A stretch of 41,752 nt of DNA from Dehalococcoidia bacterium (lineage in GTDB: Bacteria > Chloroflexota > Dehalococcoidia > GIF9 > AB-539-J10). This document shows, piece after piece, positions 2,541 to 38,043 of this stretch (the first letter of the stretch is position 1; each line of letters starts with the position of its first letter). The DNA lies in contig JAUVXS010000001.1 in assembly GCA_030603485.1 (NCBI GenBank), positions 1 to 41,752 on the forward strand, written 5' to 3'. The translations under genes and the position numbers were made by a program. Below the pieces are notes generated by a model. The model was not told the DNA's origin and did not search any database. It worked only from the letters and a program-made list of their open reading frames with translations.

Positions 2541-2711
2541 ATGATTGTGAGCTTCCAGGTAACCGAGGACATGCCTCAGCAAGTTCTAACTTCGCCCATG
2601 TACCCTCCACTAACCAAGAAGGAAATTGATGATATAGCTAGCGAGATTGCTACTTTTTGGGCGAGAAGATCGGCGACTCCCGAAGGGTTCGTTTCTAGTT
2701 CGCGCAGATGA
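2541..2711 (+). pseudogene. Possible relic of the 3' end of a DegT/DnrJ/EryC1-type aminotransferase gene (56-codon ORF below the track cutoff)
   Basis: Hand translation gives MIVSFQVTEDMPQQVLTSPMYPPLTKKEIDDIASEIATFWARRS... The stretch VL.sPmyPpLTkkEIDdI resembles the conserved C-terminal 'LP.hP.Lt.eei..v' tail of sugar aminotransferases. It sits in an otherwise unexplained 277-nt gap. Confidence 0.3.
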
Positions 2712-2727
2712 GAAAAGGAAGGTAAGG

Positions 2728-5871: not shown

Positions 5872-5984
5872 ATCTTTGAAACCATAGGTTGAAACACATG
5901 CTTGGCAAATTTGAAATGCATCTAAGCATTACTGGCAATAAGCTCCTTCGTTAACTTTTGAACCAAGCAAATTAGGTAGATAAA

Positions 5985-7262
5985 GTGAAGAAAGTTTTAA
6001 TTATAGCCTATTTCCCGCCACTTCCTCTGCCATCGCCACGCATAAGGGGCTTAGCTAAATATCTCCCTGAATTTGGTTGGGAACCCATTATTCTCGCCGC
6101 CTCCTTGCCGCAAAAGTCGGATACGCAGTTCAGGGTCATAGAAACACCTTATCGTGATGTACTGAGCTTTTGGAAAAGGTTATTCAGGTTAAACCCGGAT
6201 GAGGATTTAAGAGAGCGAATAAAGAAGCGATTTAGCATAGCCTCTAAAAAGTCTTTGATAGATTTTGTACTTACCTTTGGCGGTGAAATTGTCAATTATC
6301 CAGACGGATATAGAGGATGGAAGCCCTTTGCTATTAAGGCAGGAGATGAGCTCTTACAAACAGAGGATGTACAGGCGGTGATCAGCAGCTCGGCACCGAT
6401 AACATGCCATCTTATCGCGAGGGAGCTGAAAATTAAGCATAAGATCCCGTGGGTCGCCGATTTTCGCGATCTTTGGACACAGAATCATAATTATAGATAT
6501 GGACCGATAAGAAAGCTGTTTGATAAAAGATTGGAGCTGAAAACAATATCTGAGGCTGATGCCTTGGTGACCGTTTCACAGCCATGGGCAGATAAGTTGA
6601 GCACGTTCCATAAAGGTAAGACAGCGTACGCAATTACTAATGGCTTCGATCCAGAAATAGTAAATATTCCCCCAACAAATCTGACAGGCAAATTTACAAT
6701 AACCTATACGGGCACCATTCACTTCGAAAAGCAGAACCCTACCAAGCTTTTTCTTGCTTTGCGAGAGCTAATCTCTGAGGGGATCGTGGATCCACATGAA
6801 GTCGAGGTTAGACTTTATGGCTCAGAAACGAGGCGGTTAGCTGAGGAAGTCGAGCAGTACGAACCATCAGATATCATAAAGCAATATGGAAGAGTGCCTG
6901 TGCAAGTAGCTCGCGAAAAACAAAGAGAGTCTCAACTGTTGCTTATCTTAGACTGGGATGACCCCCAAGAAAAAGGGGTTTATCCCGGAAAGATTTTTGA
7001 ATACCTGGCAGCAAGAAGACCAATGCTGGCAACCGGCGGGTTAGATGATAATGTTGTTGAACAGCTATTAATTGAAACCAAAACTGGTGTGCATGCTCCA
7101 ACTGTGGGGGATACTAAAAACAGGCTTGAGGAGCTGTACCGGGAATACAAGGCGGAAGGCAAGATAGCCTTTCAAGGGAACGAAGCAGAGATTAATAAAT
7201 ATAGCCACCGGGAGATGGCGAGGAAATTTTCAGATGTTCTTGGGCAACTGGTACAAGAATGA
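5985..7262 (+). CDS. GT-B fold glycosyltransferase (GT4-like)
   Basis: N-terminus KKVLIIAYFPP. C-terminal GKIFEYLAARRPMLA motif typical of GT4/WbuB-like enzymes. GTG start. Confidence 0.65.
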   Translation: MKKVLIIAYFPPLPLPSPRIRGLAKYLPEFGWEPIILAASLPQKSDTQFRVIETPYRDVLSFWKRLFRLNPDEDLRERIKKRFSIASKKSLIDFVLTFGGEIVNYPDGYRGWKPFAIKAGDELLQTEDVQAVISSSAPITCHLIARELKIKHKIPWVADFRDLWTQNHNYRYGPIRKLFDKRLELKTISEADALVTVSQPWADKLSTFHKGKTAYAITNGFDPEIVNIPPTNLTGKFTITYTGTIHFEKQNPTKLFLALRELISEGIVDPHEVEVRLYGSETRRLAEEVEQYEPSDIIKQYGRVPVQVAREKQRESQLLLILDWDDPQEKGVYPGKIFEYLAARRPMLATGGLDDNVVEQLLIETKTGVHAPTVGDTKNRLEELYREYKAEGKIAFQGNEAEINKYSHREMARKFSDVLGQLVQE

Positions 7263-7288
7263 AACAAAATACGGGGTAAATCGTTAGC

Positions 7289-9538
7289 ATGATTAAATCG
7301 CTAAGAGCTGTCAGCTCCGGCAGGTTACTCATGTTTACCTTGGTATTCCTCATCGCCACAGACCTCACCATTCTTTTTAATATCCCCGTCTTAAGGCAGG
7401 TTCTCGCCTTTCTTCTCCTTACCTTCGTTCCCGGGGCCCTCATCCTTTTCATCCTAAAACTGAATAAACTGGGCTTACTCGAGAAAATAGTCCTATCAGT
7501 AGGACTCAGCGTTGCTTTCCTAATACTCTTTGGTCTGGCACTAAACACCTTGCTACTTGCCATCGGTTATACCAAGCCTCTATCAACTGCTTCGCTACTA
7601 ATATCATTCAGCATCGCCACCATTGTTTTGGCTGTCGCCGCCTATATAAGGAACAAGGAAATCACCTTTTCCCCTTCCAATCTTAAGCTAACTACGAGAG
7701 AAAAGGCGCTTTTAATTTTACCCTCACTGTTACCACTGCTAAGCATAGCGGGAATGCGCATCATGAACTTGAGCGACAACAATATCCTTTTAATGTTCTT
7801 GCTTTTCGTGATTCCTGCCTTTGTTATCTTTATCTCATTTTGCCACAGTAAAGTTCCCCAAAGACTGTACCCCAGCTTGATATTCCTAATCAGTATTTCG
7901 CTCTTGCTTATGCTCTCGTTAAGATCAAACCACATTATAGGCTCGGACATACATGAAGCATTTTATTCCTTCCAAGCGACGTTGGATAATCTGCACTGGA
8001 GCATGACGGCACCTACGCTTACGAATGCTATTTTAAGCGTTTCACTGCTACCCTCCATCTATCACACATTTCTGAATATAAGCCAAGAGTATCTGTATAA
8101 GGTTCTATATTCACTTCTGTTCTCGATCTCACCCTTGGTAGTATATATTATCGCTAAAAAATATATCGGCAATTTCTATGCTTTTATGGCCTCCTTCTTC
8201 TTTATGTCACAGACTCGTTTCTTTTGGGCATCGTGTGGTCCTGCCACAACGACGGCCACCTTTTTCTTTGCCCTGGCAATTATGGTCCTGTTCTACGATG
8301 GCATGAACATGTTTGCTAAGAAGCTTCTGTTTATCATCTTCGCCACCTCATGTCTTCTGTCGCATTACGGAACTTCATATATTTTTTTCTTTTTACTGAT
8401 CATTACTTGGATAGGAATGAAAATAATACCACGGATTTTGCCTAGTGAAAGGAAAGTGGCAACTTCATCCAAGAATCCCGTCAAAGGAGGTGCACCCTCA
8501 AACTCATCGCTAAGAGGAGCCATACTTAGAAGTGATACCAATGCTAATAAGACTTCTCAATCGGCGACTTTTAATATTCCTCAATCTCGCCTTACGGGGA
8601 GTATAACGATAAATATTGTGGCGTTGTTTTTTGTTCTGCTCTTCTTTTGGTATAGTCAAATAACAGTAGCCCCTTTCAATATCGGTGTAGACTTGATATA
8701 CAACACATTTACCAACTTAAACCAATTGTTTCTGCTAGAAGCCAAGGGGGGGACAATCAGTGCCGCCTTAGGCGAAGATATATACATGATTCCACAGAGG
8801 ATACGGGTCGTTGTTTCTTGGCTCACTATCGCCTTTATAGCCATCGGTGTGTTAAGTACTATGGCAAGATACAAGAGGATGATAGCTGTTCCCGGCTCAA
8901 GGCACATTAAACCGAATTTCCTGTACTCGAAATTTGATATGGAGTACTTCGTTCTCTCACTGGCATGCAGTATCATATTAGTAAGCACAATCGCCCTCCC
9001 CTATGTCTCGGTAGCCTATAGTATGGAGAGGGTGTACTTTCAGACACTGGCAGTCTTATCACCTTTTTTCGTTGTTAGTGGAATAGTTATCGCCAAGTGG
9101 CTCAGAGCAAGAGCTCATTGGATTATCCTTGTGGTGCTGATACCTCTCTTCATGTGCACTACGGGCACAATGTATCAGCTATTCAATGCATCAGCCTCAA
9201 TGGCCTTAAATTCAGCCGGCAGGGAGTATGAGACCATGTATGTTCACGATGCGGAAAGCTATGCCGCTAAATGGCTAAAAGAATACGCCGATGAAAGGGC
9301 AACGATATATACCGCGTATGGTCTGGGACAGCGGATGTTGATAAGCCAAGGCAAAATCCCACGTTCTCAGGCTAGGGGGTCTTTTATTACTCGATATCAA
9401 GAAGAGAAAACAATTGCAGGCTACATTTACCTGAGATATACAGATATTAAAGTTTATGAAGTAGTGGCAGAATATCCTGATATATTCGTTGGAAAGAACA
9501 AAATCTATACCGCTGGTGGCTCAGAGATATATCGCTAG
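7289..9538 (+). CDS. Large polytopic membrane protein (DUF2206-like by recollection); candidate glycan polymerase, ligase or GT-C type transferase
   Basis: More than 15 hydrophobic segments. N-terminal LLTFVPGALILFILKL motif. Hydrophilic Ser/Asn/Thr-rich loop (SERKVATSSKNPVKGGAPSNSS...). Soluble C-terminus of about 110 aa ending KIYTAGGSEIYR. Confidence 0.55.
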   Translation: MIKSLRAVSSGRLLMFTLVFLIATDLTILFNIPVLRQVLAFLLLTFVPGALILFILKLNKLGLLEKIVLSVGLSVAFLILFGLALNTLLLAIGYTKPLSTASLLISFSIATIVLAVAAYIRNKEITFSPSNLKLTTREKALLILPSLLPLLSIAGMRIMNLSDNNILLMFLLFVIPAFVIFISFCHSKVPQRLYPSLIFLISISLLLMLSLRSNHIIGSDIHEAFYSFQATLDNLHWSMTAPTLTNAILSVSLLPSIYHTFLNISQEYLYKVLYSLLFSISPLVVYIIAKKYIGNFYAFMASFFFMSQTRFFWASCGPATTTATFFFALAIMVLFYDGMNMFAKKLLFIIFATSCLLSHYGTSYIFFFLLIITWIGMKIIPRILPSERKVATSSKNPVKGGAPSNSSLRGAILRSDTNANKTSQSATFNIPQSRLTGSITINIVALFFVLLFFWYSQITVAPFNIGVDLIYNTFTNLNQLFLLEAKGGTISAALGEDIYMIPQRIRVVVSWLTIAFIAIGVLSTMARYKRMIAVPGSRHIKPNFLYSKFDMEYFVLSLACSIILVSTIALPYVSVAYSMERVYFQTLAVLSPFFVVSGIVIAKWLRARAHWIILVVLIPLFMCTTGTMYQLFNASASMALNSAGREYETMYVHDAESYAAKWLKEYADERATIYTAYGLGQRMLISQGKIPRSQARGSFITRYQEEKTIAGYIYLRYTDIKVYEVVAEYPDIFVGKNKIYTAGGSEIYR

Positions 9539-9551
9539 CTATATTCTTGTC

Positions 9552-10634
9552 CTAAATACCATCGCTATCTCCCAAAGTGAAGTGCCATCTGTAAGCGTGG
9601 CTAACAATCTGGCTACCGAGCTCATTCTTATAGCACATAAGGGGAACAGCTACTGCGTGAGGCAAGAAGCCAAGTTTAACGAGTATTCTATCGTAAAAAC
9701 TACCTTTGACCACCCAGACACTAACCCTGCTCACTTTTCTGTGGTAAAAGTCCCGAAGCGAGGTAGAAAGCAACTTCTTTAGTACATTAGGATCATCCTC
9801 AATAGTCAAGAAGTCACAAATAAACCCCTTTGGTATGCTCTCAAAGAGGCTGATTTTGTTTACCATATACCCCAAGATAGCTCCATCCCTGTTTCTGGCA
9901 ATTAGAATTGAGTAAGTATCAGGATTGGTTACATACCTCCACTCCAGATAATCCTTTGTACGCACCAGCATAACATCGTAATTGTTTGAAACTTGTTCCC
10001 AAAGAGTATTGATATCATCAGGAAAACCTGGCTCTGCGTAAATAAGGACATCGCTTTTTGTTACCCCCCTCATGCCAATTCTGAATATGGCTCGGGAAAC
10101 AGTATCTATCACCGGTGAGAATGCCGAAGCCAAGAGCCGAGAGCGTAGTCTTGCCTTCAGCGGTTGCTTGGAGTTTATTATATGCACTAGGCTACGCAAC
10201 TTAATTGGCACCGGCACGTGATTCAACTTCTTGATGTAACCCGGCAGAGAGGTATCTTTATTAGGAATATTATAGATAAGGCTTATGCCTTTATTGATGA
10301 TGCTCTCCCTAGCGGCTTTGGATAGTGTCGTAAAGATACCTCGCCTTTGATAATCGGGGTGAGTGAAGGTATCTCCCATCTCAGCTACAGTGGTTATATT
10401 CCCTAATGCTTTCATCATCTTTGGCGTAACATTCTTTATTGCCACGATTTTGTCACCATCCTCAGCCAACCACATCTCCCCCGGCAGGATAGGATTCTTA
10501 TAACACTTCCATTCGTAATACTCAGGTTCATAAGACCTCATTAAGGGATTATATTTAAAAAAGGTTTTGCGGAACTCGGAGATTCTGGGCAAGTCTTCTC
10601 TTTTGGCTTTTCTAAAGGTTAATTCCTCTGACAT
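9552..10634 (-). CDS. GNAT-family acyltransferase with extended C-domain; paralog of the C-terminal half of 2728-4533
   Basis: THPDYQRRGIFTTL and LWEQVSNNYDVMLVRTKDYLEWRY parallel THPEYRRQGIASIL and LWERVSNDYSIIVARNKRYLNWRY in the fusion. ATG 10634 is preceded by GGAGGG and overlaps the upstream stop as TAATG. The longer ORF to 10697 is rejected. Confidence 0.75.
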   Translation of the reverse strand: MSEELTFRKAKREDLPRISEFRKTFFKYNPLMRSYEPEYYEWKCYKNPILPGEMWLAEDGDKIVAIKNVTPKMMKALGNITTVAEMGDTFTHPDYQRRGIFTTLSKAARESIINKGISLIYNIPNKDTSLPGYIKKLNHVPVPIKLRSLVHIINSKQPLKARLRSRLLASAFSPVIDTVSRAIFRIGMRGVTKSDVLIYAEPGFPDDINTLWEQVSNNYDVMLVRTKDYLEWRYVTNPDTYSILIARNRDGAILGYMVNKISLFESIPKGFICDFLTIEDDPNVLKKLLSTSLRDFYHRKVSRVSVWVVKGSFYDRILVKLGFLPHAVAVPLMCYKNELGSQIVSHAYRWHFTLGDSDGI

Positions 10635-11581
10635 TATTCCCTCCTCTGCCCACGGGATATAATTTGCTCGACTAATATTACAAATGGTAGTACCCATCTA
10701 AACCACCAGTCATAGGCTCCCTCAACCTTTCTTCTGAACTTGGCAAGGGAATCCTGGCTACCAATTGGAACCCTTCGCAATTCAAAGAAATCGCTCTTTA
10801 AGGTGTTACTGCCCCATTTGGTTACCGCGGCACGATACCCCGCCACCTGAACCCAATTTTTAGCTGATTTATTTATGTCCCCATAAGGATAACCGAAACA
10901 TGCCACCGGCTTTTTCAATATCCCTTCAAGGCATTGTTTAGAGCCTCTTAACTCCTCCATAGCGCTACTTTCGTCAATTTGGGTTAAGCTACAATGGCTC
11001 TTGGTATGGGAACCAAAACAAGCTCCCTGAGCATTCATAGCCAGAATTTCCTCTCGCCTAAGTGGCAACCAATATTGTCTGTTGTCCTGAGCGTGGGCAA
11101 GCGACTTCTCCTCTAGCTTTAGCCAGTGAAAGATTTTATCACTATCAATGTAATCAGTAACTATAAAGAAAGTTCCCTTGAGGTTATATTTCGCTAGGAT
11201 AGGAAAGGCGTTGAGATAATTATCCCGATAGCCATCATCCAAGGTGACAATGACTGTTTTGGGGGGAGGCTTCATATTCTTACCCTTATACTCAATAAAC
11301 TCGTCTAAGGTGATAACATTAAATCCATTTTGTGATAAGAATTCCATCTGCCAGGCAAATGCTTTAGGGGGAACATTAAGAAAAGACATAACATCATTTG
11401 CCTCTGGAAGGTCGTAGACCCTATGGTAGCATAAGATTCTGACTTTATTCCCGCTCAGTAACCGATATAACGGATGAATCACTATGCTGATGAAGTCAAC
11501 ACAGATGTGTAATAAACTTCTTAGTATTCTCATCTCAATTAATTCGAAGCACTTGCAAAAGTGCCTCCCACCAGATATCAT
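10634..11581 (-). CDS. NodB-type polysaccharide deacetylase with N-terminal hydrophobic segment
   Basis: Motifs VTLDDGYRDN, GSHTKSH and GYPYG. The start is uncertain (ATG 11581 or ATG 11533) and neither has a strong Shine-Dalgarno. Confidence 0.8.
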   Translation of the reverse strand: MISGGRHFCKCFELIEMRILRSLLHICVDFISIVIHPLYRLLSGNKVRILCYHRVYDLPEANDVMSFLNVPPKAFAWQMEFLSQNGFNVITLDEFIEYKGKNMKPPPKTVIVTLDDGYRDNYLNAFPILAKYNLKGTFFIVTDYIDSDKIFHWLKLEEKSLAHAQDNRQYWLPLRREEILAMNAQGACFGSHTKSHCSLTQIDESSAMEELRGSKQCLEGILKKPVACFGYPYGDINKSAKNWVQVAGYRAAVTKWGSNTLKSDFFELRRVPIGSQDSLAKFRRKVEGAYDWWFRWVLPFVILVEQIISRGQRRE

Positions 11582-11767
11582 GTAGGAAGCAGCAAGCTAC
11601 GCCAGAAAACACAATACCCGTTAATTAGAATAGTCGCTAGAGAACAGGGTTGTCAATGATGGTGAAGCAGGGGTTCAATTCGCCTTATGGAAATATTTAA
11701 TCCCCTTTCGGCGAAAGTTACTCCTCACTTGGGAATAATCATGGGGAAGTCTGGTGACAGAAGGCAA
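11582..11767. promoter_or_regulatory. Divergent intergenic region expected to carry promoters for the 10634-11581 (-) and 11768-13868 (+) units
   Basis: This is the only non-coding DNA between divergently oriented genes. I could identify only weak hexamers (TTGTCA at 11650-11655, 18-nt spacer, TTCAAT). Confidence 0.3.
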
Positions 11768-13910: not shown

Positions 13911-15092
13911 TTAAACTAGGTTGGCATACTTAGCCCATATCTCAGTCAGCCTCATTCCCTCCTCCAGATCAAATCTTGGCTGATAACCCAGCAATCGTTT
14001 AGCCTTGTCTATTCTAACACGTGTCCGAGCCTTGAATTCCCTGTTCTGAGCGTCTGTTAATAGGCGAAGAGGCTTTTCTTCTGAAACTAACGGTCCGGAC
14101 TGCCTGGTTGAACCATGCAATATGATAGTATTCTTCAAATGTTGCCACCAAGAGCGCGGTATTATTCCTTCTGTCAGTCTGATGAATCTCGCAACAGCCG
14201 GAAGTTGTGTAATCCACAACAGGACATCAATTCTTCGGAATGTAGTCAGTACCTGATGGATTGTCCCATGCTCCCGCTTGTATTGTCTATTCAAGTCTGC
14301 TAGGTCACTCTGGCTTGCAAAAATTACTGATTTGGTACCAAGTATTTGCTCGTAAGCGGCGTAGAATTCCCACCAGGTTACTGGTTCCTCAGCAGAAATA
14401 AGAAATGCCTCACCGACCGCCTTATCTCTAGTCGCAACTAACAACATCGCCTCAACAACATCATCAACATAAACAGCATTGCATAGCCCTTCTTTTGCCT
14501 CCTCGGGGAGAATAACCCTTTCATTCTTCAGCTGGTTAATTATCCTAACCGTCCAGCTTCCAATAAAGGGGCCATACACAATTGTCGGTTGAATAATTGA
14601 AACGGGCACTCCATATTTCCGAAAATAGTGGAAAGCTAATTTTTCCGCTTTAAGCTTGGAATCGGCATAGCTTTCGCCCGAATATTTACGCAGTGCAGAC
14701 TCGTCAAGGTCACCGTCTGCGGTTTGCCCGTACACCGAAATCGTGCTGACATGAACCACTCGCTCAAGTTTGTGCTCCAGGGCAGCTTTTAACACATTTT
14801 TAGTTCCTTGGGTGGTTTCCTTACTACTGCCGTAGGCAAGGTGGAAGACAATATCGCAGCCTTCCATTGCTTGGTGCACTGCTGACGGGTCGACAATATC
14901 CCCGGGAACCATTTGAATTGGGAAGCGTGCCACTCTCGATGCTCGGGCAAAGTTCCTGATCAGGACACGCACCTCAGCCTGGCACTCCATTACCAATCGT
15001 TCAACCAGGTGCCCGCCAATAGATCCCGTTCCCCCTGTTACCAAAACCCTCTTGCCTTTCAAGTTTATCGTGGCGTATCTTGGCTGGTTCAT
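13911..15092 (-). CDS. NAD-dependent epimerase/dehydratase (extended SDR) with C-terminal extension
   Basis: VLVTGGTGSIGGHLVERL and the YADSK catalytic motif. ATG 15092 overlaps the upstream TGA (ATGA). A GTG at 15104 is the alternative start. Confidence 0.8.
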   Translation of the reverse strand: MNQPRYATINLKGKRVLVTGGTGSIGGHLVERLVMECQAEVRVLIRNFARASRVARFPIQMVPGDIVDPSAVHQAMEGCDIVFHLAYGSSKETTQGTKNVLKAALEHKLERVVHVSTISVYGQTADGDLDESALRKYSGESYADSKLKAEKLAFHYFRKYGVPVSIIQPTIVYGPFIGSWTVRIINQLKNERVILPEEAKEGLCNAVYVDDVVEAMLLVATRDKAVGEAFLISAEEPVTWWEFYAAYEQILGTKSVIFASQSDLADLNRQYKREHGTIHQVLTTFRRIDVLLWITQLPAVARFIRLTEGIIPRSWWQHLKNTIILHGSTRQSGPLVSEEKPLRLLTDAQNREFKARTRVRIDKAKRLLGYQPRFDLEEGMRLTEIWAKYANLV

Positions 15093-16123
15093 ACTGTCTT
15101 GCACCTCTGCCAGGGCAGTTCAAGCAGCTTACGGTTCTGATAACATGCCTCAATCAGTTCCACGGATTTACGTGCCTCCTCACCGGGAACCAGTGGCTGC
15201 CCCCCGTTCTGGATTGCCTCAACCCAATCTTCTAGTTGGGCAGTGAACAGGTCTTTAACTGACCGGGCTTTCCATTCAGCACCATAGCTTTCAACCACAT
15301 CACCAACGATTTTTTTATGTAAACCTTTGGGTTGAATCGATATCTGGAAACGGTGTACATGCACCTCTACTGTGGCTTTCTCGCTTTTGATGATGATAGT
15401 ATTCCGCAGATTGCGGATGCGACTTAGATCCACAAAGCCCCTTACGCTATTTTTCATCTTCAGATGAATCTGGCAGTCAGCCTCGATTCCGCCCATATTA
15501 TCATCGAAGTAGTCAAATGACTCGTAGTCTCCGAACCACCACAGCAGAGTATCTAACGCGTGAGCCCCGGTATCCATCAGTACTCCGCCACAAGCCATCT
15601 CCTTTCGGAAGTAGAAATCTGATGCTATCGGCCAGTTATAGATATTTCCTTCACGCAGATCGAAAGACTCAATCTTTCCGAGGAAACCACTATCAAATAA
15701 TGCTTTGATAAATTGATCAATGTAACGGAATCGGCGCACGAGCCCTACAGCAAGAGTCGCACCACTCTGCCGCGCTGCTGTAATCATTCTGTCGCACTCG
15801 GCTGTGCTGGGCGCCATTGGCTTCTCTACGAGTACATGAATACCGCGATTCAGAAAGTCAATGCTGATTGGAGCATGCAGTGCGTGCGGCAATGCCACAA
15901 TGGCAGCATCTGCTTGACCGAAAATCTCTTTATAATCCTCTGCAACACGGGGCACGCTGAACCTATCGGCTAACTTATTAGCGCGAGCTATATTTGTGTC
16001 CACTAGTACTGCAAGCTCAACCTTATCGGAGACTACTGCCGCCGGTATATGCCCCTGCTCAGCAGCAGCACCACAACCGACGATGCCTAACTTGAGAGGT
16101 GCTATTTCAGAAGAGGTCATCAT
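15089..16123 (-). CDS. Gfo/Idh/MocA-family sugar oxidoreductase
   Basis: LKLGIVGCGAAAEQGHIPA Rossmann motif and VLVEKPMA. I chose start ATG 16123, because the 73-codon extension to 16342 runs through the upstream gene. Confidence 0.85.
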   Translation of the reverse strand: MMTSSEIAPLKLGIVGCGAAAEQGHIPAAVVSDKVELAVLVDTNIARANKLADRFSVPRVAEDYKEIFGQADAAIVALPHALHAPISIDFLNRGIHVLVEKPMAPSTAECDRMITAARQSGATLAVGLVRRFRYIDQFIKALFDSGFLGKIESFDLREGNIYNWPIASDFYFRKEMACGGVLMDTGAHALDTLLWWFGDYESFDYFDDNMGGIEADCQIHLKMKNSVRGFVDLSRIRNLRNTIIIKSEKATVEVHVHRFQISIQPKGLHKKIVGDVVESYGAEWKARSVKDLFTAQLEDWVEAIQNGGQPLVPGEEARKSVELIEACYQNRKLLELPWQRCKTV

Positions 16124-16964
16124 AGTTGACTCTTTCAAAGACTTCGAGTTTTCCACCAACGCCAGCATTGTAGATTTTCCTCGCGTGCTTCTCAAAGGTA
16201 TCCCTAGCAACCGAGTAGGATGCCGTAACCTTGTCGTACCAAGGTTCCCCGTGTTCTTCGAATCTCTTCTGGTTAAATGCACGACAGAAGTGGTGGAAGT
16301 ATCCTTTCGATAAATCCTCGGCTTCACGGAGCTTGTAATCACAATCGCACCCTAAAAGATAAATATCAGAGAATCCCATGTAGAAGGCTAGGGGAAGACA
16401 GAAATCAATGATGAGCGTACAACCATAGTATACTTCGTTGGTAATGTCTAGACTCATTGATTTGGTTTCCCAGATGGGGGTGTCTCTGCAGTTAAGATAA
16501 AAAATTGGATGATTGACAAAAAGATTATGTTTCCTGATAAATGGTTTAGCGCGTAGAGAAAAAAACTTTGGAGTGTTTGCTGTCTTCTCCAGCATCAAGG
16601 GATACCATTCAGCATCGAAATCATTGTATTTGATCAGGTCAATAGTCACACAATAGTAAGTGGGATTGATTTCATCATATTGGTTGTGGTGAACAAAGCT
16701 GTTGGTGACAAAAACTATTTCATGCTCTAATTTGGTCAAATCCTGTTGGAGGATAGAAGGGCCGTTACCAATGATAAAGCAGCGCTTTTGGTCGGCATGC
16801 AATTTTTTAAACCGTTTGAGCCTTGGCCTCTCGGGAATCATTGCCCAGTTAGCCCTAAGGCGTCTGACCTGCTTTTGTTCCCAGTCATAAGCCTTTCTAA
16901 TATAGACAAGGTCATATTTGCCAACAATCTTCTTAGCAACCGAATAAACCAAGGTACCTTTCAT
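16107..16964 (-). CDS. DUF115/MptE-like protein (Maf or sialyltransferase-like); candidate nonulosonic-acid transferase
   Basis: FIIGNGPSI and LLGCDCDY motifs, as in DUF115/GT42-type proteins. It lies immediately downstream of the NeuA/NeuB homologs. Confidence 0.55.
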   Translation of the reverse strand: MKGTLVYSVAKKIVGKYDLVYIRKAYDWEQKQVRRLRANWAMIPERPRLKRFKKLHADQKRCFIIGNGPSILQQDLTKLEHEIVFVTNSFVHHNQYDEINPTYYCVTIDLIKYNDFDAEWYPLMLEKTANTPKFFSLRAKPFIRKHNLFVNHPIFYLNCRDTPIWETKSMSLDITNEVYYGCTLIIDFCLPLAFYMGFSDIYLLGCDCDYKLREAEDLSKGYFHHFCRAFNQKRFEEHGEPWYDKVTASYSVARDTFEKHARKIYNAGVGGKLEVFERVNYDDLF

Positions 16965-17027
16965 TGAACTCCCTTCAGTCCAGTTCTAACGGGGTGCATT
17001 CCATTTTCTATCGCCTATTCCTCTTTA

Positions 17028-17858
17028 TCACAGTCCGCGTAGCCTCTTCAGATTAGGCTTTTCGCTCTCATATATTCGTTTTACTCCATCACCTAGTGCC
17101 TGTTCAATTATTCTCACATCTCTCACTAATCGAAGTAGGCCCTGGGGTTCAAGTGATGCGCTCTGGTCTGAGCCATAGGCAGCTCTGTCAAGCGTAATGT
17201 GCCTCTCTAGTGAAGTTGCACCCAGAGCGACGGCGGCCAGGCTTACCTGCAGTCCTATCTCATGCCCGCTATAGCCTACGTCGCAGCCAAATCTCTCACG
17301 CAAGGTAATAATGCAGTTAAGATTAGCTTCCTCACTCTTTATCGGATAGGCACTGTTGCAGTGCATTAGTTCAAACGGACAGTCGTATTTTCTGAATATG
17401 TCCACAGCTTTTTCAATCTCAGCCATCGTGCTCATCCCCGTGGAGATAAAGGTATACTCTTTCTCTTCGGCCACTGTTTCTAAAAGTTTAATATTAGTTA
17501 ACATCGGTGAAGCGATTTTATTATGTTTGAGGTTATATTTCCTCAAGAAAAGCTGACTTTCAGTATCCCAGGCTGATGCGAACCATTCTGTGCCTTTCCC
17601 TTGGCAATAGCGGTCGATTTCATCATACTCCTCCTCACCGAATTCCACCCGGTAGCGATATTCTAAATACGTCATCAACCCCCACGGAGTCTCGCGCATT
17701 ACATTAACGTAATCAGGGGGAACACTGGTTTCAGGGTTTCTCTTTTGAAACTTAACCGCATCACAGCCGGCAAAAGCCGCCACATCAATGAGCTTTTTAG
17801 CGATGTCAATATCCCCATTGTGGTTAATGCCCACTTCGGCAATGATAAAAACCCTCAT
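17028..17858 (-). CDS. NeuB-family (sialic/nonulosonic acid synthase) TIM-barrel protein lacking the C-terminal SAF domain
   Basis: VFIIAEVGINHNGDIDIAKKLIDVAAFAGCDAVKFQKR. The protein ends at 276 aa, right after the barrel (…ALGDGVKRIYESEKPNLKRLRGL). Confidence 0.85.
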   Translation of the reverse strand: MRVFIIAEVGINHNGDIDIAKKLIDVAAFAGCDAVKFQKRNPETSVPPDYVNVMRETPWGLMTYLEYRYRVEFGEEEYDEIDRYCQGKGTEWFASAWDTESQLFLRKYNLKHNKIASPMLTNIKLLETVAEEKEYTFISTGMSTMAEIEKAVDIFRKYDCPFELMHCNSAYPIKSEEANLNCIITLRERFGCDVGYSGHEIGLQVSLAAVALGATSLERHITLDRAAYGSDQSASLEPQGLLRLVRDVRIIEQALGDGVKRIYESEKPNLKRLRGL

Positions 17859-17860
17859 AT

Positions 17861-19039
17861 TTACTCTCCTTCATTAGGTCTCCTACTTTCTAAAATCAGG
17901 TCGCAAATCTCTCGCACAGCTCCACTGCCACCAGCAGCCTGCATTACAATATCGGCTACTGCTATAACCATTGGATGGGCATCAGCAACTGCCACGCCCA
18001 CGCCAACAGCCCCTATACAAGCTATATCGTTGACATCATTGCCAACATAAGCTACTTTGTCAAGGTCAACATTATGTGCTTTTGCTGCCTGCTTTAGTAC
18101 GGACAGCTTGTCGGCTGCATTTTGGAAACAGGGAATACCCAGTTTATGACATCGTGCCGAGACCACAGGGTTCGCCTCTTTAGAAATGACGACCACGGGA
18201 ATGCCTTCCTGTCTTAGCCGCTCTATCCCCAGCCCATCTCCTCTATGGCACACGATAGACTCCTTGCCGTCCTGGGATACCAACACGTGGTTATCAGTCA
18301 ACACTCCATCAAAGTCCAGAACCAATAACTCAACGCCTTTAAGTTTCTCAATAGCTTGGCGCTGATGCCGTAGAGGGAGCAATTGCTCCAGCAGCAAAAA
18401 GTCCTCTTCAGTGTCAATTTGGAGTGAATCCAGCGGGTCCATTTCGTATAAAGAGATGCGGCCTCCTAGACGGTTCTCATGCTGCTTGAGAATCTCTGTT
18501 TTCGTTACATAGATGGAGCCATTTTCAATGTACTCTGGTGTGAAATCCTGTCTCCTTGGGCGATCCCGGTAGTCGTAGTTTGCTGATATAAGTTGACCAT
18601 CTTCCCACCGCCAGTAGAAGTTATACGAGCGACAGCAAGAGAACAATGAATCTGCACCTGCAGCATTTAGAGTATCAATCGCGTTATCAATATCGTCAGG
18701 CTTTCGTAGAGGTGAAGTAGGTTGTAATAAGACAAGCATCGATGGCAGATATCCTTCTGTTTGTTCCAGCAAGGATAGAACATGAAGAAGTACTGACTCG
18801 GCGCTGGCGGTATCCGTCGCCAACTCTGGGGGACGCATCACCACCTCTGCTCCATATTGGCGCGCTACCTTAGCGATTTCGGCATCCTCTGTTGATACTA
18901 TTGTGCGGCTTACCTGCCGCGCTTGTAAGGCTTGTTCAATCGTATAGGCTACTAATGGCTTACCAGCTAGCAGCCTGATATTCTTCCGTGGTACGCCCTT
19001 GGAGCCGCCACGGGCAGGGATAATTGCACAAATTCTCAT
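17861..19039 (-). CDS. Fusion: CMP-nonulosonate (NeuA-type) cytidylyltransferase plus KdsC-like HAD phosphatase
   Basis: N-terminus ICAIIPARGGSKGVPRKNI. C-terminal half has LVLDFDGVLTD (HAD motif I) and YVGNDVNDI (motif IV). Confidence 0.85.
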   Translation of the reverse strand: MRICAIIPARGGSKGVPRKNIRLLAGKPLVAYTIEQALQARQVSRTIVSTEDAEIAKVARQYGAEVVMRPPELATDTASAESVLLHVLSLLEQTEGYLPSMLVLLQPTSPLRKPDDIDNAIDTLNAAGADSLFSCCRSYNFYWRWEDGQLISANYDYRDRPRRQDFTPEYIENGSIYVTKTEILKQHENRLGGRISLYEMDPLDSLQIDTEEDFLLLEQLLPLRHQRQAIEKLKGVELLVLDFDGVLTDNHVLVSQDGKESIVCHRGDGLGIERLRQEGIPVVVISKEANPVVSARCHKLGIPCFQNAADKLSVLKQAAKAHNVDLDKVAYVGNDVNDIACIGAVGVGVAVADAHPMVIAVADIVMQAAGGSGAVREICDLILESRRPNEGE

Positions 19040-19048
19040 TTTTTTCCT

Positions 19049-20410
19049 TTAAGTTTGTCGAAACCCCCTGAAACTTGCGTCCCTTTGGCAGTAAAGCTTT
19101 TCAGCAACACGGGTCATTGATTCTAACTGGTGTCGATAATAATGCTCCAATAAAGTTTTATTTGCCTCAAAAAGCACTCTGTGAAATTCATCATTCGACA
19201 AATCTGTAAAATTAACCGACAACAAATCTGAATTTATATGCTTATTCTCGTAAAAGTCGGCACAGTCTCTGAGCAGCCCCTCTTCTATAGCATAATAGTA
19301 TAAATCACAGCCCGGATATGGTGTCACCGGACGAATTGTTCTCAACTGGGAATGGTCATCATATTTAAGCAGAAATTCTACCCCCCTTTGCAATATTTCT
19401 GGGGTCTCTCCGATATTTCCGAAAATAATATTAAATCCCGGAGATATACCCTCAGCCAAAGTTGCTTCTATACCTTTAATAATCTGGTCTGTGGTAAGAT
19501 TTTTATTCATAACCTTTAACATATTATCATCCATGGATTCAATACCATAGTTAATAAAGACACATCCAGCCTTTTTCATGGTTTTCAAAACTTCAGGCCT
19601 GGCAAAGTTAAGCCTCCCGTTGCAACTCCATTTTATATTTAGCTCAGCTTTAATGAAAGCCTCACATAACATTACAGTTCTCCTTGCTGAAGACATTAAA
19701 AGTTCATCAAGAAAATCAATATAGGAAACCCCATAATCTTTCTTAAGAATCTGGATTTCTTCAACAATGCTTTCAGGTGATCTAGCCCGAAATCCCTCGT
19801 CCATTCTATAGCAAAAATTACATCTAAACGGACAGCCCCTGCCAGATAAAACGAAAAAAGCTCTTTCATTATTCTTTATGTGTGGTCGCCTAAACAATGA
19901 ATAGTAGTCCATTGGGAAAAGGTCCCATGCAGGCAAAGATATTGAATCCAAATTTTTAACCAGTTCCTGAGGTTTAGTAAGAACCAGACGTCCATCATCG
20001 AGATAGGCAATGCCATTTACTGAAGAAAAACTCCTTTTATTTTCAAAAGCATCCAGTAAATTGACAATCGTCATATCTCCCTCACCAATGACAATTACAT
20101 CAGCCTCGGGAGCCGGACCATGCCCTCCCAAGATATATAAAGGACGATTGGGCACAGAATCAATAGCTTCGGATATTTTTAATAATTTTTGGTATTGGTA
20201 ATAACCACCTATAATACCAAGACCAACGACATCAAAATGATTATTGGTTAAATAGGCAACCAGGTGGGATTCAGGATAGTGGAATTGATCCTGGTTATAT
20301 ATCATAACATTGTGCCCTGCGTTTCTCAGTGCTGATGCAATATATGCAAGTCCCATGGGAAACTCGTGTATATAAGAATCATTATCATAAGCAATCAATA
20401 GTACTTGCAT
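19049..20410 (-). CDS. B12-binding-domain radical SAM enzyme (class B type)
   Basis: N-terminal Rossmann-like B12 domain (VLLIAYDN...GLAYIASALRNAGHNV, VIVIGEGD). Radical SAM cluster motif GRGCPFRCNFCY (Cx3Cx2C). Confidence 0.85.
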   Translation of the reverse strand: MQVLLIAYDNDSYIHEFPMGLAYIASALRNAGHNVMIYNQDQFHYPESHLVAYLTNNHFDVVGLGIIGGYYQYQKLLKISEAIDSVPNRPLYILGGHGPAPEADVIVIGEGDMTIVNLLDAFENKRSFSSVNGIAYLDDGRLVLTKPQELVKNLDSISLPAWDLFPMDYYSLFRRPHIKNNERAFFVLSGRGCPFRCNFCYRMDEGFRARSPESIVEEIQILKKDYGVSYIDFLDELLMSSARRTVMLCEAFIKAELNIKWSCNGRLNFARPEVLKTMKKAGCVFINYGIESMDDNMLKVMNKNLTTDQIIKGIEATLAEGISPGFNIIFGNIGETPEILQRGVEFLLKYDDHSQLRTIRPVTPYPGCDLYYYAIEEGLLRDCADFYENKHINSDLLSVNFTDLSNDEFHRVLFEANKTLLEHYYRHQLESMTRVAEKLYCQRDASFRGFRQT

Positions 20411-20454
20411 CTATGATCCCTCTTGCTCATATCCCCAAAGCGCCAATTGTCCAT

Positions 20455-20483
20455 ATCATAGCCCAAATGTTACCTCTTGTCAA
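20455..20483 (-). promoter_or_regulatory. Sigma70-type promoter candidate upstream of the radical SAM gene
   Basis: The minus strand reads TTGACA, then the 17-nt spacer agaggtaacatttgggc, then TATGAT. The -10 ends 44 nt upstream of ATG 20410, followed by an AGAGGGA Shine-Dalgarno. It sits in a 145-nt gap. Confidence 0.35.
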
Positions 20484-20555: not shown

Positions 20556-20885
20556 TTAATCATATTGTATCCACTCTGAGACATGGATACATTTGTCATC
20601 TACATAGACATCTGCTCCAGGCCTACCCATTACCAATCGATGGTACTTAACGTTCCACGCCTTCAATTGATGTTCTGTAAGCGTGCGCCAGTCAATCCCT
20701 GTTGTGAAACCCCGAGCAGTGTGCAGGATAATAGTATGCCCGGCATCATATAGCTTATTTAGCTTTGAGATGACTTCCAGACAAGGAGTTGCCTCAGGGT
20801 AATTTCCCTGAGTGTCGCTGCAGAGCGTCCCATCTATGTCAAAGCAATAGATCATTTTGTCGCGGTCTCCCATTTTTAGAGCCAC
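20556..20885 (-). CDS. Small HAD-superfamily phosphatase (capsule-biosynthesis EcbF/BcbF-like by recollection)
   Basis: IYCFDIDGTLC (DxDGT motif I), HTARG, and YVDDK near the C-terminus. The start is uncertain: GTG 20885, ATG 20873, or ATG 20855 (GGGAGA 10 nt upstream). Confidence 0.6.
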   Translation of the reverse strand: MALKMGDRDKMIYCFDIDGTLCSDTQGNYPEATPCLEVISKLNKLYDAGHTIILHTARGFTTGIDWRTLTEHQLKAWNVKYHRLVMGRPGADVYVDDKCIHVSEWIQYD

Positions 20886-21439
20886 TGCCGGAAGGCTTGC
20901 GAAATTAGGTGGGTCAGGACCAAGTGCATATCCTCCACCACACCGTAATTACTGGAAGAAAAGGTGATGTTGAAGTCAGCTATTTTGGCTAGTTTGCCAC
21001 CGCCGAAGCCGCTGAAGCCAATTGTCTTCCCACCATGGTTCTTAGCATATTCGATGGCCTTAAGCACGTTTGGTGAATTGCCCGAGGCTGAAATGCCGAT
21101 AGCCAAGTCGCCCTGGTTCCAGAGCGCAGACATCTGCTCAACAAAGATATCGCCATAGGAGATGTCATTAGCTATAGCGGTCATCATGGCGACGTTGTCT
21201 GTTAGGCTGATGGCACGCAACCGTGGTTTACCAGGGACTGCCGTCATTTTGGCTAGGTCACAGGCTAAGTGTGAAGCCGTGGCTGCCGAGCCACCGTTAC
21301 CAAACAGGAAGACTTGTCGGGCATTTTCCTGTGCTTCTTGAAGCACATCGACAATCTGCTCAAGAACAGTAAAATCAATCTCTGCAATCGCCTCTTTCAG
21401 CGACTTGATGTATTGATTGAATAAATCAGGTAAGACCAT
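20876..21439 (-). CDS. gmhA: SIS-domain sedoheptulose-7-phosphate isomerase-like protein
   Basis: FGNGGSAATASHLACDL, NDISYGDIF, GISASGNSPNVLKAIEYAK and GFGGGKLA align along the whole length with my memory of E. coli GmhA. Strong AAAGGAG Shine-Dalgarno. Confidence 0.75.
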   Translation of the reverse strand: MVLPDLFNQYIKSLKEAIAEIDFTVLEQIVDVLQEAQENARQVFLFGNGGSAATASHLACDLAKMTAVPGKPRLRAISLTDNVAMMTAIANDISYGDIFVEQMSALWNQGDLAIGISASGNSPNVLKAIEYAKNHGGKTIGFSGFGGGKLAKIADFNITFSSSNYGVVEDMHLVLTHLISQAFRQWL

Positions 21440-21442
21440 AAT

Positions 21443-21580
21443 CTATCTCCTTTCACTGGTAGCCTTACATGCGTATTTGATGACATGCACTATAAGTGCC
21501 CTGCCAGCCAGCGGTTGGATATTCTTCCACGGTATGCTTTTGGAGCTGCCCCGAGCGGGGATCGTTGCGATGGTGGTCAT
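21443..21580 (-). pseudogene. Truncated N-terminal remnant (45 codons) of a NeuA/KdsB-type cytidylyltransferase
   Basis: MTTIATIPARGSSKSIPWKNIQPLAGRALIVHVIKYA... matches the first 45 residues or so of the intact enzyme at 17861-19039 (ICAIIPARGGSKGVPRKNIRLLAGKPLVAYTIEQA). It then hits TAG inside the Shine-Dalgarno of the next gene. Confidence 0.5.
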
Positions 21581-21608: not shown

Positions 21609-22796
21609 TCATTCCTCCGCCGAAAATCTTCCGATTCTTTCGCACATCTCTCTGAATGCTTCCTGTATAACTTCAAGCCTATCATCTTCCCACACATATC
21701 GCTGGAAGGGACTTGCCCACGGTAACTGAGATCCCGGTTCAACACCTTGAATGAGGAAGTACCGCTCAGAGGTAGCACCATATGAGGGTATAAGTATCTT
21801 GAACATGAGGTAACGCGCTCGCGGATTCAAAACACATAACATAAATGGCCCGTTGCTGACAGACATATTCAAATAACTCAACTCATATAAAGCGGCCCGA
21901 AGCTCAACATTCCAAACAACCTCCGGGAAGACGAGGAGTCCATCCAGATCAGAAGGTAGAAGCTTGATAGCAGTCTCCGTGTCCCTTATCACAACGGGGC
22001 AATAAATGGATGGGTTCAAGCTTCGGACAAATGCTCCCCATGCTTCTAGATTGCTGTTTCTATCCTGCATATATGGACTTTCTCGTAAGGTAATGGTAAT
22101 CACCTTGCGGACACCGGCCTTCAGTTGGATCCAATCGCTTACGAAGCGGCGTGCCTGTGGTGTAGCTTGAACAGTGGGTAAGACAACTCCTTTGGATGCT
22201 GCAGCAACAACATGTGACATATTGTACTTCTCTTTGGGAAAACGAACCGTATACCACTTGGGAAAGATGTATCTCGTTAATGATGCCTGGAACGCTTGTG
22301 CTTCTTTACGCGATGTACATACTGTTACCTGTTGACATGAAGAGATGAGCCAACAGCAAGACACCAGGATATTTCTCAACCTCCACTTCATATAATCAGT
22401 ATCGTAGTACCCTATACCATCATCCCTGCGATAAATCTCAAGATCACCTGCGCGAAACCCCGCATCAGGTCCGGGGACAATGACAATGTGTAGTGACGGA
22501 CAGCCAACTTGCTTTCGCTGGAGTTCTGCAAGCACAAGGAACCAAACAATATCAAAGGTGGCTGGTGAAACCGCGAGGTCATAGAACGCATATAACACGT
22601 CAGACTGCTTCTTCCCTATATACCTATGCCAGATATTGTCGAGTACACCCCAGAGATTAGCTCGAATAGGTCGTGTGCTCTGCCAGATGAGTTTAAGGAA
22701 CCTGTGAGCACACCAGATAATCCCCTTCTTCCGCACCCTGCTGGCCAGGAAGCGGGGAGACAGATAGAGTTTCCAAGATTTAGCATTTGAACCCAT
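21609..22796 (-). CDS. Hypothetical protein; C-terminal half weakly GT9 (heptosyltransferase)-like
   Basis: Long ORF coupled to its neighbours (TAATG at 22796). ITITLRE..RNSNLEAWGAFVRSL and ELRAALYELSYLNMSVSNGPFMLCVL resemble the GT9 pattern 'EL.ali..a.l.ig.DSGp.Hla'. I do not recognise the N-terminal half. Confidence 0.35.
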   Translation of the reverse strand: MGSNAKSWKLYLSPRFLASRVRKKGIIWCAHRFLKLIWQSTRPIRANLWGVLDNIWHRYIGKKQSDVLYAFYDLAVSPATFDIVWFLVLAELQRKQVGCPSLHIVIVPGPDAGFRAGDLEIYRRDDGIGYYDTDYMKWRLRNILVSCCWLISSCQQVTVCTSRKEAQAFQASLTRYIFPKWYTVRFPKEKYNMSHVVAAASKGVVLPTVQATPQARRFVSDWIQLKAGVRKVITITLRESPYMQDRNSNLEAWGAFVRSLNPSIYCPVVIRDTETAIKLLPSDLDGLLVFPEVVWNVELRAALYELSYLNMSVSNGPFMLCVLNPRARYLMFKILIPSYGATSERYFLIQGVEPGSQLPWASPFQRYVWEDDRLEVIQEAFREMCERIGRFSAEE

Positions 22797-34436: not shown

Positions 34437-34458
34437 TATTTGAGATTCCTCCTGCGGC

Positions 34459-38035: not shown

Positions 38036-38043
38036 AATGTAGC

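Follow-up and report, generated by a model that had tools for sequence, protein, structure and literature searches.

A compact Chloroflexota gene unit built around a NeuB homologue without SAF domain, predicted to make a CMP-activated Kdn-like acid

Synthases of nonulosonic acids (NulO) do not always carry the C-terminal SAF domain of the NeuB type. In a 2021 phylogenetic survey the domain was present in ~70% of 13,941 NulO synthases, and the function of the remainder was left open. The question of which acid sugar a SAF-less synthase would serve is raised by a 41.7-kb stretch of DNA from a Dehalococcoidia bacterium (contig JAUVXS010000001.1, positions 1 to 41,752), hereafter the window, which by its gene content is one large ABC-transporter-type surface-glycan cluster of a Chloroflexota bacterium. 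On its minus strand lie four closely spaced genes that encode a radical S-adenosylmethionine (SAM) protein with a B12-binding domain (19049-20410, 453 aa), a NeuA-type synthetase fused to a YrbI/KdsC-type phosphatase of the HAD superfamily (17861-19039, 392 aa), a SAF-less NeuB-family synthase (17028-17858, 276 aa) and a single-domain DUF115/MptE-like protein (16107-16964, 285 aa). We propose, with a probability of roughly 0.6, that this gene set makes an acid resembling ketodeoxynononic acid (Kdn), activated with cytidine monophosphate (CMP) and formed via a phosphorylated intermediate, and that the DUF115 protein transfers it to a surface glycan. Loci of relatives are labelled L001, L006, L086 and so on.

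The window synthase matches PF03102 at 242 bits over residues 23-260 of 276; it has no SAF domain and no PF08666 match, the protein ends at residue 276, and its match to the TIGR03569 equivalog ends at model position 273 of 329. Both equivalog cut-offs are missed (NeuB, 260.2 versus 399.65 bits; PseI, 191 versus 340.25 bits). Equivalents of residues E25, K53, Q55, K129, S132, S154, Y186, S213, H215, E234, H236 and D247 of Neisseria meningitidis NeuB (NmNeuB) are kept, as E8, K36, Q38, K114, S117, S139, Y171, S197, H199, E218, H220 and D231; the sole exception among the metal, phosphoenolpyruvate (PEP) and catalytic residues is E134, replaced by M119, and F112 of NmNeuB corresponds to W97. The first-pass annotation had singled out the lack of a SAF domain and named a truncated pseudogene as what would speak against its reading. 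A pseudogene we reject: near and distant homologues are equally long and the catalytic residues are intact. The 120 best homologues (64-88% identity) all measure 268-312 aa and consist of the NeuB domain alone; the named close ones come from Chloroflexota genome bins. The best solved homologue (PDB 6NCS, E = 1e-45) is SAF-less as well. A scan of species-representative genomes found at least 577 NeuB relatives, and the 80 that were kept (55-66% identical) span Streptomyces, Planctomycetota, Omnitrophota, Elusimicrobiota, Lachnospiraceae, Leptospirales, Thermoplasmatales, Nitrosopumilus and Methanoperedens. By these comparisons the SAF-less synthase is ordinary in distribution and belongs to a large family that is conserved in both Bacteria and Archaea. 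An exact-sequence look-up of the window protein gave no record.

Several residues are invariant or nearly so in the SAF-less family and different in NmNeuB: K39 and R40, right after the PEP-binding K36 and Q38; R55 together with P58-W59-G60 in a lengthened beta2-alpha2 loop; E200, Q232 and R249; and the C-terminal pair L273-R274. R219 is also invariant in the family, and NmNeuB has Arg at that place too. The family-specific basic residues are candidates for phosphate binding, and the C-terminal Arg is a candidate stand-in for Arg314, which the SAF domain of the NmNeuB/TIGR03569 type supplies to the partner subunit. We predict the window NeuB to be a sugar-phosphate-dependent ulosonate-phosphate synthase that condenses PEP with an aldose.

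A putative phosphatase for such a product is encoded just upstream. Residues 1-220 of the fusion protein form a NeuA-type domain (CTP_transf_3 at 99 bits; P-loop PARGGSKGVPRKN) and residues 230-390 a YrbI/KdsC-type HAD domain that passes the TIGR01670 cut-off (118.2 versus 106.95 bits) and has both catalytic motifs, DFDGVLTD and GNDVND, intact. Neighbourhoods were counted over 84 loci encoding SAF-less NeuB. A KdsC-like HAD domain is present in 64 of them, nearly always within ~1 kb; 44 have the whole NeuA-HAD fusion immediately upstream of NeuB, as in the window; and a NeuA homologue occurs in 72 (73 when only the NeuA domain was searched with), usually within ~2 kb. Where NeuA is unfused, the phosphatase is found as a separate gene, 41% identical to the window HAD domain. 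Eight loci carry another arrangement, in which a YrbI/KdsC-type phosphatase is fused to a GmhA-like isomerase (TIGR00441 at 164-176 bits) and directly adjoins the SAF-less NeuB gene (L047, 10839-11915; L012, 8908-9990; and six more). We know of no earlier description of this fusion, which ties the isomerase to a ulosonate pathway and not to the synthesis of nucleoside diphosphate (NDP)-heptose. L-ribulose-5-phosphate 3-epimerase-like proteins and a split transketolase are further recurrent sugar-phosphate neighbours; transaldolase was considered as another and rejected as a general one, being present in L044 (Methanoperedens) alone. A Leptospira paper describes a NeuB fused to an 'endonuclease-like' domain, taken by its authors as a phosphatase, and does not mention Kdn; in the loci related to the window, members of that domain family (AP_endonuc_2) score as L-ribulose-5-phosphate 3-epimerase-like.

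The NeuA domain bears on what is activated. The solved structure that it matches best is 9T4Z (4e-41), which is that of the Kdn-specific CMP-Kdn synthetase from Prymnesium parvum (PpNeuA). In PpNeuA, Arg196 acts as a gate-keeper for Kdn, R196L shifts preference to N-acetylneuraminic acid (Neu5Ac), and Kdn-only producers, Streptomyces albus among them, carry Arg in the same column (PMC12934254). R190 of the window protein (NRLGG) aligns with this residue (CRLGE in PpNeuA), while the Neu5Ac enzymes of Vibrio cholerae and mouse have Phe and Leu there. Because the NeuA domain carries the gate-keeper Arg, the product is pointed towards a Kdn-like acid, with a 5-hydroxy group instead of a 5-acylamino group. 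No UDP-GlcNAc 2-epimerase of the NeuC type (Epimerase_2) was matched among the window open reading frames (ORFs) scanned, as the first-pass annotation had said, and we count this absence for a Kdn-like product. A parallel comes from 24 Streptomyces and Herbidospora loci in which the NeuA-HAD and SAF-less NeuB pair stands beside a polysialyltransferase-like gene; the walls of Streptomyces contain a Kdn-galactose teichulosonic acid made by SCO4873-SCO4882. Linkage to a KdsC-type phosphatase, intact HAD motifs and the gate-keeper Arg together support a phosphorylated-intermediate route with CMP activation. This much of the pathway logic had been read from the window at first sight, and it appears largely right.

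The proposed sequence of steps would begin with an aldose phosphate, most simply mannose-6-phosphate, which the SAF-less NeuB would condense with PEP to a 3-deoxy-ulosonate phosphate. The C-terminal domain of the fusion, of the YrbI/KdsC type, would remove the phosphate, and the N-terminal NeuA domain would activate the free acid with CTP, the product being a Kdn-like acid that is 5-hydroxy and not 5-acylamino. The DUF115 protein, with its predicted sialyltransferase-like fold, would then transfer the acid to a glycan, possibly as a terminal residue. The B12 radical SAM protein and two oxidoreductases encoded further downstream, one of the Gfo/Idh/MocA family and one short-chain dehydrogenase/reductase (SDR), would be accessory tailoring enzymes that vary between lineages. 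The sugar phosphate, the acceptor and the order of the tailoring steps are those that we infer; the observations beneath them are the intact genes, their domains and catalytic motifs, the conserved neighbourhoods, the gate-keeper Arg and the predicted fold.

The assignment of the DUF115 protein as a transferase, made earlier from its motif, gains from its predicted structure. The protein matches PF01973 (MptE-like/DUF115) at 39.4 bits against a cut-off of 34.6, and its GNGPS motif, at residues 65-69, is well conserved in the family alignment, both Gly and the Ser being invariant and the Asn and Pro at least 90% conserved. A search of the PDB at the sequence level gave no match at E up to 1. 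The AlphaFold2 (AF2) model has a predicted local distance difference test (pLDDT) score of 90.5, and its eight best PDB matches in Foldseek are all sialyltransferases (probability 0.90-1.00, E 6e-4 to 1e-2), followed by noise; no other structural match is significant, and the likeness to sialyltransferases, whose fold is a GT-A variant, is modest, with template-modelling (TM) scores of only 0.34-0.46. We predict that the protein is a CMP-ulosonic acid glycosyltransferase. In L086 a DUF115 gene follows NeuB at 72% identity; close relatives have a CST-I (GT42), LIC12162-family or GT1 gene at this position, which fits a transferase for a CMP-activated acid sugar that is interchangeable between relatives. 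An ABC ATPase of the Wzt type, ending in a Wzt_C carbohydrate-binding domain, is also encoded in the window (40120-41442, minus strand), and at least eight other loci have a Wzt homologue no more than a few kb from their SAF-less NeuB gene. In Klebsiella O12, terminal Kdo (ketodeoxyoctonic acid) caps are recognised by Wzt carbohydrate-binding domains. By analogy, these hints make it a reasonable idea that the acid sugar might be a chain-terminating cap recognised for export.

The chemistry added by the radical SAM protein can be read in two ways. The protein combines a B12-binding domain (PF02310, 36.8 versus 32.1 bits) with a Radical_SAM domain (PF04055, 82.6 bits) and has the CxxxCxxC motif as C193-x3-C197-x2-C200. 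The first-pass annotation had suggested C-methylation, and the class B domain architecture, most characterised members of which are methylases, agrees with it, as do matches to the models for PhpK, ApyD and the C-methyltransferase of ribosomally synthesised and post-translationally modified peptides (RiPP) at 1e-27 to 1e-31. The methylase models nevertheless score only 61-109 bits, and none reaches its cut-off (PhpK 103/600, RiPP C-methyltransferase 97/282, HpnR 76/650, KedN5 61/700 bits); no NCBIfam family cut-off is reached at all, the best being BchE (161 versus 481 bits), and the best curated models, BchE, ladderane radical SAM and HpnJ, include no established methylase. Among solved structures the best match is the diol dehydratase AprD4 (6FD2, 3e-20), confined to the radical SAM core, against 2e-6 to 2e-3 for the methylases OxsB, CysS and TokK. 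The annotation had named grouping with non-methylating families as what would speak against methylation, and BchE as best curated and AprD4 as best solved match take the protein partway there. Two oxidoreductases in the same transcription unit, and close relatives in which the B12 radical SAM gene is replaced by a radical SAM/SPASM gene with an SDR gene, or by one for a TylF-type O-methyltransferase, likewise fit an enzyme that does not methylate, and instead carries out an AprD4-like dehydration or deoxygenation (for example of a C8-C9 diol) followed by Gfo or SDR reduction, or else acts on a different sugar of the glycan. We hold such a non-methylating role to be a serious contender at somewhat less than even odds. 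C-methylation of a sugar is possible, radical dehydration followed by reduction is equally open, and the substrate may be either the ulosonic acid or another sugar. Orthologues adjoin SAF-less NeuB in L001 (83% identity), L023 (62%) and L012 (38%), and we found nothing relevant in the literature on nonulosonic acids together with radical SAM enzymes.

How far the Streptomyces parallel carries over to the window depends on the synthase pocket. Signatures read from tblastn segments divide the SAF-less family in two. Subfamily A (S119, D122, T168, A/C173, W228, with a one-residue deletion at 160) has the fusion as partner and takes in all Streptomyces and Herbidospora loci; subfamily B (M119, N/H122, N168, M173, Y228) contains the window NeuB and all 120 of its best homologues. 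The two may use different sugar phosphates, because position 119 is the counterpart of the active-site E134. In subfamily A, 43 of 45 loci have a partner NeuA with the gate-keeper Arg; in subfamily B, 14 of 28 do. A GmhA-like SIS isomerase gene accompanies 18 of 38 subfamily-B loci against 1 of 46 in subfamily A (Fisher p = 5e-7), with an HldE-like gene in only 1 of the 19 SIS loci, and the SIS proteins of L044, L006 and L024 keep all of GmhA H61, E65, Q172 and H180. In L044, from a Methanoperedens metagenome-assembled genome, a tight row at 4949-11590 encodes an epimerase, the N and C halves of transketolase, transaldolase, a GmhA-like SIS protein, a radical SAM/SPASM protein, SAF-less NeuB and NeuA, and looks like a dedicated supply of sedoheptulose-7-phosphate for a NeuB-type synthase.

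These observations, together with the eight GmhA-like isomerase-phosphatase fusions described above, allow a different product: from a heptose-7-phosphate, the synthase would form a 3-deoxy-dec-2-ulosonic acid of ten carbons, to be dephosphorylated and activated with CMP by the same fusion enzyme. Subfamily-B enzymes, the window's included, would then not be Kdn-9-phosphate synthases, and their products would belong to a family of 10-carbon 3-deoxy-ulosonic acids. We consider this unlikely for the window, and the broader claim for the subfamily equally so. No 10-carbon ulosonic acid was found in the literature, nor anything relevant on NeuB together with GmhA; the transaldolase occurs in a single locus; and L087 and L088, whose NeuB proteins are 77-79% identical to the window's, have no SIS gene within 10 kb. 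The SIS protein of the window itself (20876-21439, minus strand, 187 aa) is the most divergent, at 121 bits against a TIGR00441 cut-off of 209.45 and 29% identity to Escherichia coli GmhA, with H61 and H180 kept and E65 and Q172 replaced by D and E. It adjoins a GT9-like GT-B protein in a cluster that also has an HldE-like gene, so that an ordinary role in NDP-heptose synthesis suffices. If the 10-carbon reading does hold, such acids would be undescribed sugars, widespread in environmental Bacteria and Archaea and diversified by radical SAM enzymes, methyltransferases and aminotransferases.

Two further alternatives concern the phosphatase and the chain length. The HAD domain could be a non-catalytic oligomerisation module, as in the vertebrate CMP-sialic acid synthetase, which has the same domain order and whose mouse C-terminal domain (3EWI) is homologous at 2e-20; the synthase would then take unphosphorylated mannose or a hexosamine. 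We give this little chance: neither catalytic Asp motif is damaged, the solved structures most closely related to the domain belong to active YrbI/KdsC phosphatases, and many loci encode the phosphatase on its own or joined to an isomerase, arrangements that do not fit a scaffold. An eight-carbon, Kdo-like acid, with SIS as arabinose-5-phosphate isomerase and NeuB in place of KdsA, would make the four activities run parallel to KdsD, KdsA, KdsC and KdsB, and the HAD domain does score somewhat better with KdsC (133 bits) than with Kdn-9-phosphate phosphatase (91.5 bits). Yet the SIS protein is GmhA-like, without CBS domains and without a match to the KpsF/KdsD model, and the cytidylyltransferase is much nearer to the synthetases that activate Kdn and sialic acids with CMP (1e-27 to 4e-41) than it is to KdsB (1e-8 or weaker); we regard a Kdo-like product as highly improbable. 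The Kdn-like acid made via a phosphate is the reading we prefer, and several points weigh against it. The HAD domain falls short of two equivalog cut-offs (NF058599, Kdn-9-phosphate phosphatase, 91.5 versus 180 bits; KdsC, 133.4 versus 208 bits). The gate-keeper Arg shows, as far as the alignment goes, a small polar group at C5 and is silent on chain length. The window pocket has M119, N122, N168 and Y228 where the Streptomyces type has S119, D122, T168 and W228, and may accept another sugar phosphate; the Streptomyces link itself joins genus-level chemistry to gene content, and not to a mapped SCO gene. We found no published substrate for any SAF-less NeuB-family enzyme, and on the function of such enzymes only the 2021 survey came to light. 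As to the later steps, the DUF115 gene accompanies SAF-less NeuB in only 5 of the 84 loci and L086, the TM-scores of its product are low, and a radical SAM orthologue occurs with SAF-less NeuB in few loci.

The extent of the unit was judged from gene order. Direct reading confirmed the four minus-strand genes with gaps of 9, 2 and 63 nt, and Pfam and NCBIfam bore out the four domain calls made for them. The unit does not stop at four genes, as the first-pass annotation had it. A Gfo/Idh/MocA NAD-dependent sugar oxidoreductase gene, identified with Pfam at 15089-16123 on the minus strand, has its true start at an ATG at 16120 or 16123 that overlaps the DUF115 stop codon; its L086 homologue is 71% identical, with the alignment beginning at 16120, and the protein resembles UDP-GlcNAc 3-dehydrogenase (NCBIfam, 104 bits). 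An extended SDR of the epimerase/dehydratase/3-beta-HSD type (13911-15104, minus strand; Pfam and NCBIfam) comes last and shares 66% identity with its positional counterpart in L086. The order NeuB, DUF115, Gfo, SDR and then a convergent glycosyltransferase family 2 (GT2) gene is the same in L086 and in the window. From the start/stop overlap, the SDR gene next in line and the equal order in L086 we take the transcription unit to be six genes, from 20410 down to 13911.

Upstream, the preceding ORF ends at 20556, leaving a 145-nt gap before the radical SAM gene. The gap holds a sigma-70-type promoter-like site on the minus strand (20455-20483), read directly as TTGACA at 20483-20478, a 17-nt spacer and TATGAT at 20460-20455, 45 nt 5' of the start codon; the length of the gap and the two hexamers with their spacing are as first annotated. 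With 11 of 12 positions matching, the site is the best-scoring one in 13.5-25.5 kb, and TTGACA-N16-18-TATNAT occurs just once in the window, against 0.13 expected by chance. At least one occurrence was seen in 12 of 100 shuffled sequences, and the match by itself is only mildly improbable. Its orientation and its position in the sole sizeable gap of a long minus-strand gene row add weight to the promoter reading, and transcription would start shortly downstream of it. The closest syntenic relative, L001, has only 13 nt between its SIS gene and the radical SAM gene behind it, and has neither such a gap nor the site; the promoter, if it is one, is for that reason at best specific to the window's lineage. 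The gap matches no Rfam family, and its RNA folding is not unusual (z = -1.0). L001 also suggested that the upstream MT220, zinc-dependent alcohol dehydrogenase (Zn-ADH), unknown-395 and SIS genes are members of the cassette, which we mostly reject. The block of methyltransferase, NUDIX, Zn-ADH and GT-B genes appears to be a separate module, since in L090 a block of this kind (transketolase, methyltransferase, NUDIX, Zn-ADH, unknown-401) is present and NeuB is not.

The genes just upstream of the unit all lie on the minus strand. The end of the SIS gene is overlapped by a gene for a small HAD-type phosphatase (20556-20885, 109 aa) with a DxD motif and a weak TIGR01689 match; homologues of 45-54% identity lie near SAF-less NeuB in L006 (Thermoplasmatales, directly beside SIS) and in the bacterial loci L040 and L047. 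Just upstream of SIS, 21443-21580 holds a 45-codon relic that matches positions 2-38 of CTP_transf_3 (E = 7e-7), the N-terminus of a second NeuA-type cytidylyltransferase. It reads IPARGSSKSIPWKNIQPLAGR and then a stop, covers only the P-loop region (MTTIATIPARGSSKSIPWKNIQPLAGR...), and shares 43-45% identity with the N-terminal ends of the NeuA-HAD proteins in L087 and L088; it looks like what is left of a second NeuA gene deleted from between the GT-B and SIS genes. Because of this relic, the paired SIS and small HAD genes could be left over from another cassette. As for function, the SIS protein might provide NeuB with its aldose phosphate or work in an NDP-heptose branch. The 395-aa protein next to it (21609-22796) has no Pfam or NCBIfam match and a predicted GT-B fold (AF2 pLDDT 93.8), with GT9 heptosyltransferases and TagF as nearest structures. 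Its family has at least 190 uncharacterised members, and it travels with the Zn-ADH, NUDIX hydrolase and methyltransferase genes in L001 and L090; a 438-aa protein at the same position in L022, considered as a homologue, showed no homology.

Farther along the minus strand are a split transketolase (N and C halves, 28898-30597), a pyruvate-dehydrogenase-type E1 alpha/beta pair (33378-35442) and an HldE-like bifunctional protein in reversed order, nucleotidyltransferase before PfkB kinase (36506-38134). Both domains of the HldE-like protein are far under the RfaE cut-offs, and the protein is 72% identical to one encoded in L087, where the epimerase, E1 alpha, E1 beta and dehydratase genes beside it are also collinear with the window. 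The transketolase block recurs in L090, L044, L024 and L034. Transketolase and E1 pair together suggest transfer of C2 units onto sugars or a dedicated supply of sedoheptulose-7-phosphate. A DegT aminotransferase, many SDRs, methyltransferases and glycosyltransferases complete the cluster. Other features of the window stand apart from the unit. The plus-strand gene at 7289-9538 encodes a membrane protein of 749 aa that has DUF2206 and weakly matches DUF1616, two mostly archaeal families present here in a bacterial, Chloroflexota-like glycan cluster; the L087 contig carries an STT3/AglB-type oligosaccharyltransferase. Polysaccharide deacetylase and GNAT acetyltransferase are paired twice, at 2647-4533 (plus strand) and 9552-11581 (minus strand), in one case fused into a single protein of 628 aa, in the other encoded by a pair of overlapping genes of the opposite strand.

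About one third of NeuB-family synthases have no SAF domain, and the comparative evidence gives this group a testable function as sugar-phosphate-dependent ulosonate-phosphate synthases that work with a YrbI-type phosphatase. The logic proposed for them is that of animals and Bacteroides, and not the classical bacterial one. Pocket type A is linked to the Kdn polymers known from Streptomyces and type B, the window's, to GmhA-like isomerases. Should type B turn out to make Kdn, thousands of genes annotated as 'N-acetylneuraminate synthase' could be given a correct label; a longer acid as its product would define a new class of surface sugar. The window is a test case and not an oddity, and its compact six-gene unit is a convenient set for expression.

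Among the known systems close to the unit is the Kdn pathway of Bacteroides thetaiotaomicron and P. parvum, which consists of a Kdn-9-phosphate synthase, a Kdn-9-phosphate phosphatase and a CMP-Kdn synthetase. Common to both are a PEP condensation by a NeuB-family enzyme, a YrbI-type C0 HAD phosphatase and a CTP_transf_3 synthetase, and structures of the B. thetaiotaomicron phosphatase BT1713 (3E81 and related) are detectably homologous to the window HAD domain (1.5e-19). The window differs in that the phosphatase is fused to the synthetase and the synthase has no SAF domain, and it carries additional genes for a radical SAM protein, a predicted DUF115 transferase and two oxidoreductases. The Streptomyces type of SCO4873-SCO4882, with which the related loci were equated by gene content, shares the adjacent NeuA-KdsC fusion and SAF-less NeuB (56-59% identical to the window's) in its 24 Streptomyces and Herbidospora loci, as well as the gate-keeper Arg in NeuA. 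There, however, NeuB belongs to subfamily A, the neighbouring gene is a PF07388 polysialyltransferase-like one, SIS and DUF115 genes are absent, and no B12 radical SAM gene was seen. For the synthase barrel alone, the nearest solved protein is 6NCS ('N-acetylneuraminic acid synthetase', a 290-aa chain of similar length), on which no functional paper was found in the literature; it is a distant relative, without the 12-residue beta2-alpha2 insertion that bears the invariant P58-W59-G60 and with Asp in the column of M119.

Three further systems compare as follows. Kdo synthesis by KdsD, KdsA, KdsC and KdsB proceeds identically, from a ketose-phosphate isomerase through a PEP aldol condensation on an aldose phosphate to a YrbI-family phosphatase and CMP activation, but uses a synthase of the KdsA/DAHPS fold and an SIS+CBS isomerase, where the window has a NeuB fold, a GmhA-like isomerase and a NeuA-type cytidylyltransferase. 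The vertebrate pathway (NANS, NANP, CMAS) has a phosphorylated substrate and product, and CMAS joins NeuA and KdsC-like domains in the order of the window fusion (1QWJ, 1e-31; 3EWI, as above). NANS keeps its SAF/antifreeze-like domain, which the window NeuB lacks, and the C-terminal domain of CMAS is regarded as non-catalytic, unlike the HAD domain of the window with its intact motifs. For the final step, the GT42 and GT29 sialyltransferases are comparable through the predicted fold, and the Maf (DUF115) transferases of flagellin nonulosonic acids have PF01973 and the GNGPS nucleotide-binding motif in common with the window protein; they possess flanking domains, whereas the window DUF115 protein is a single domain of 285 aa, encoded in a window with no flagellar genes among the ORFs scanned.

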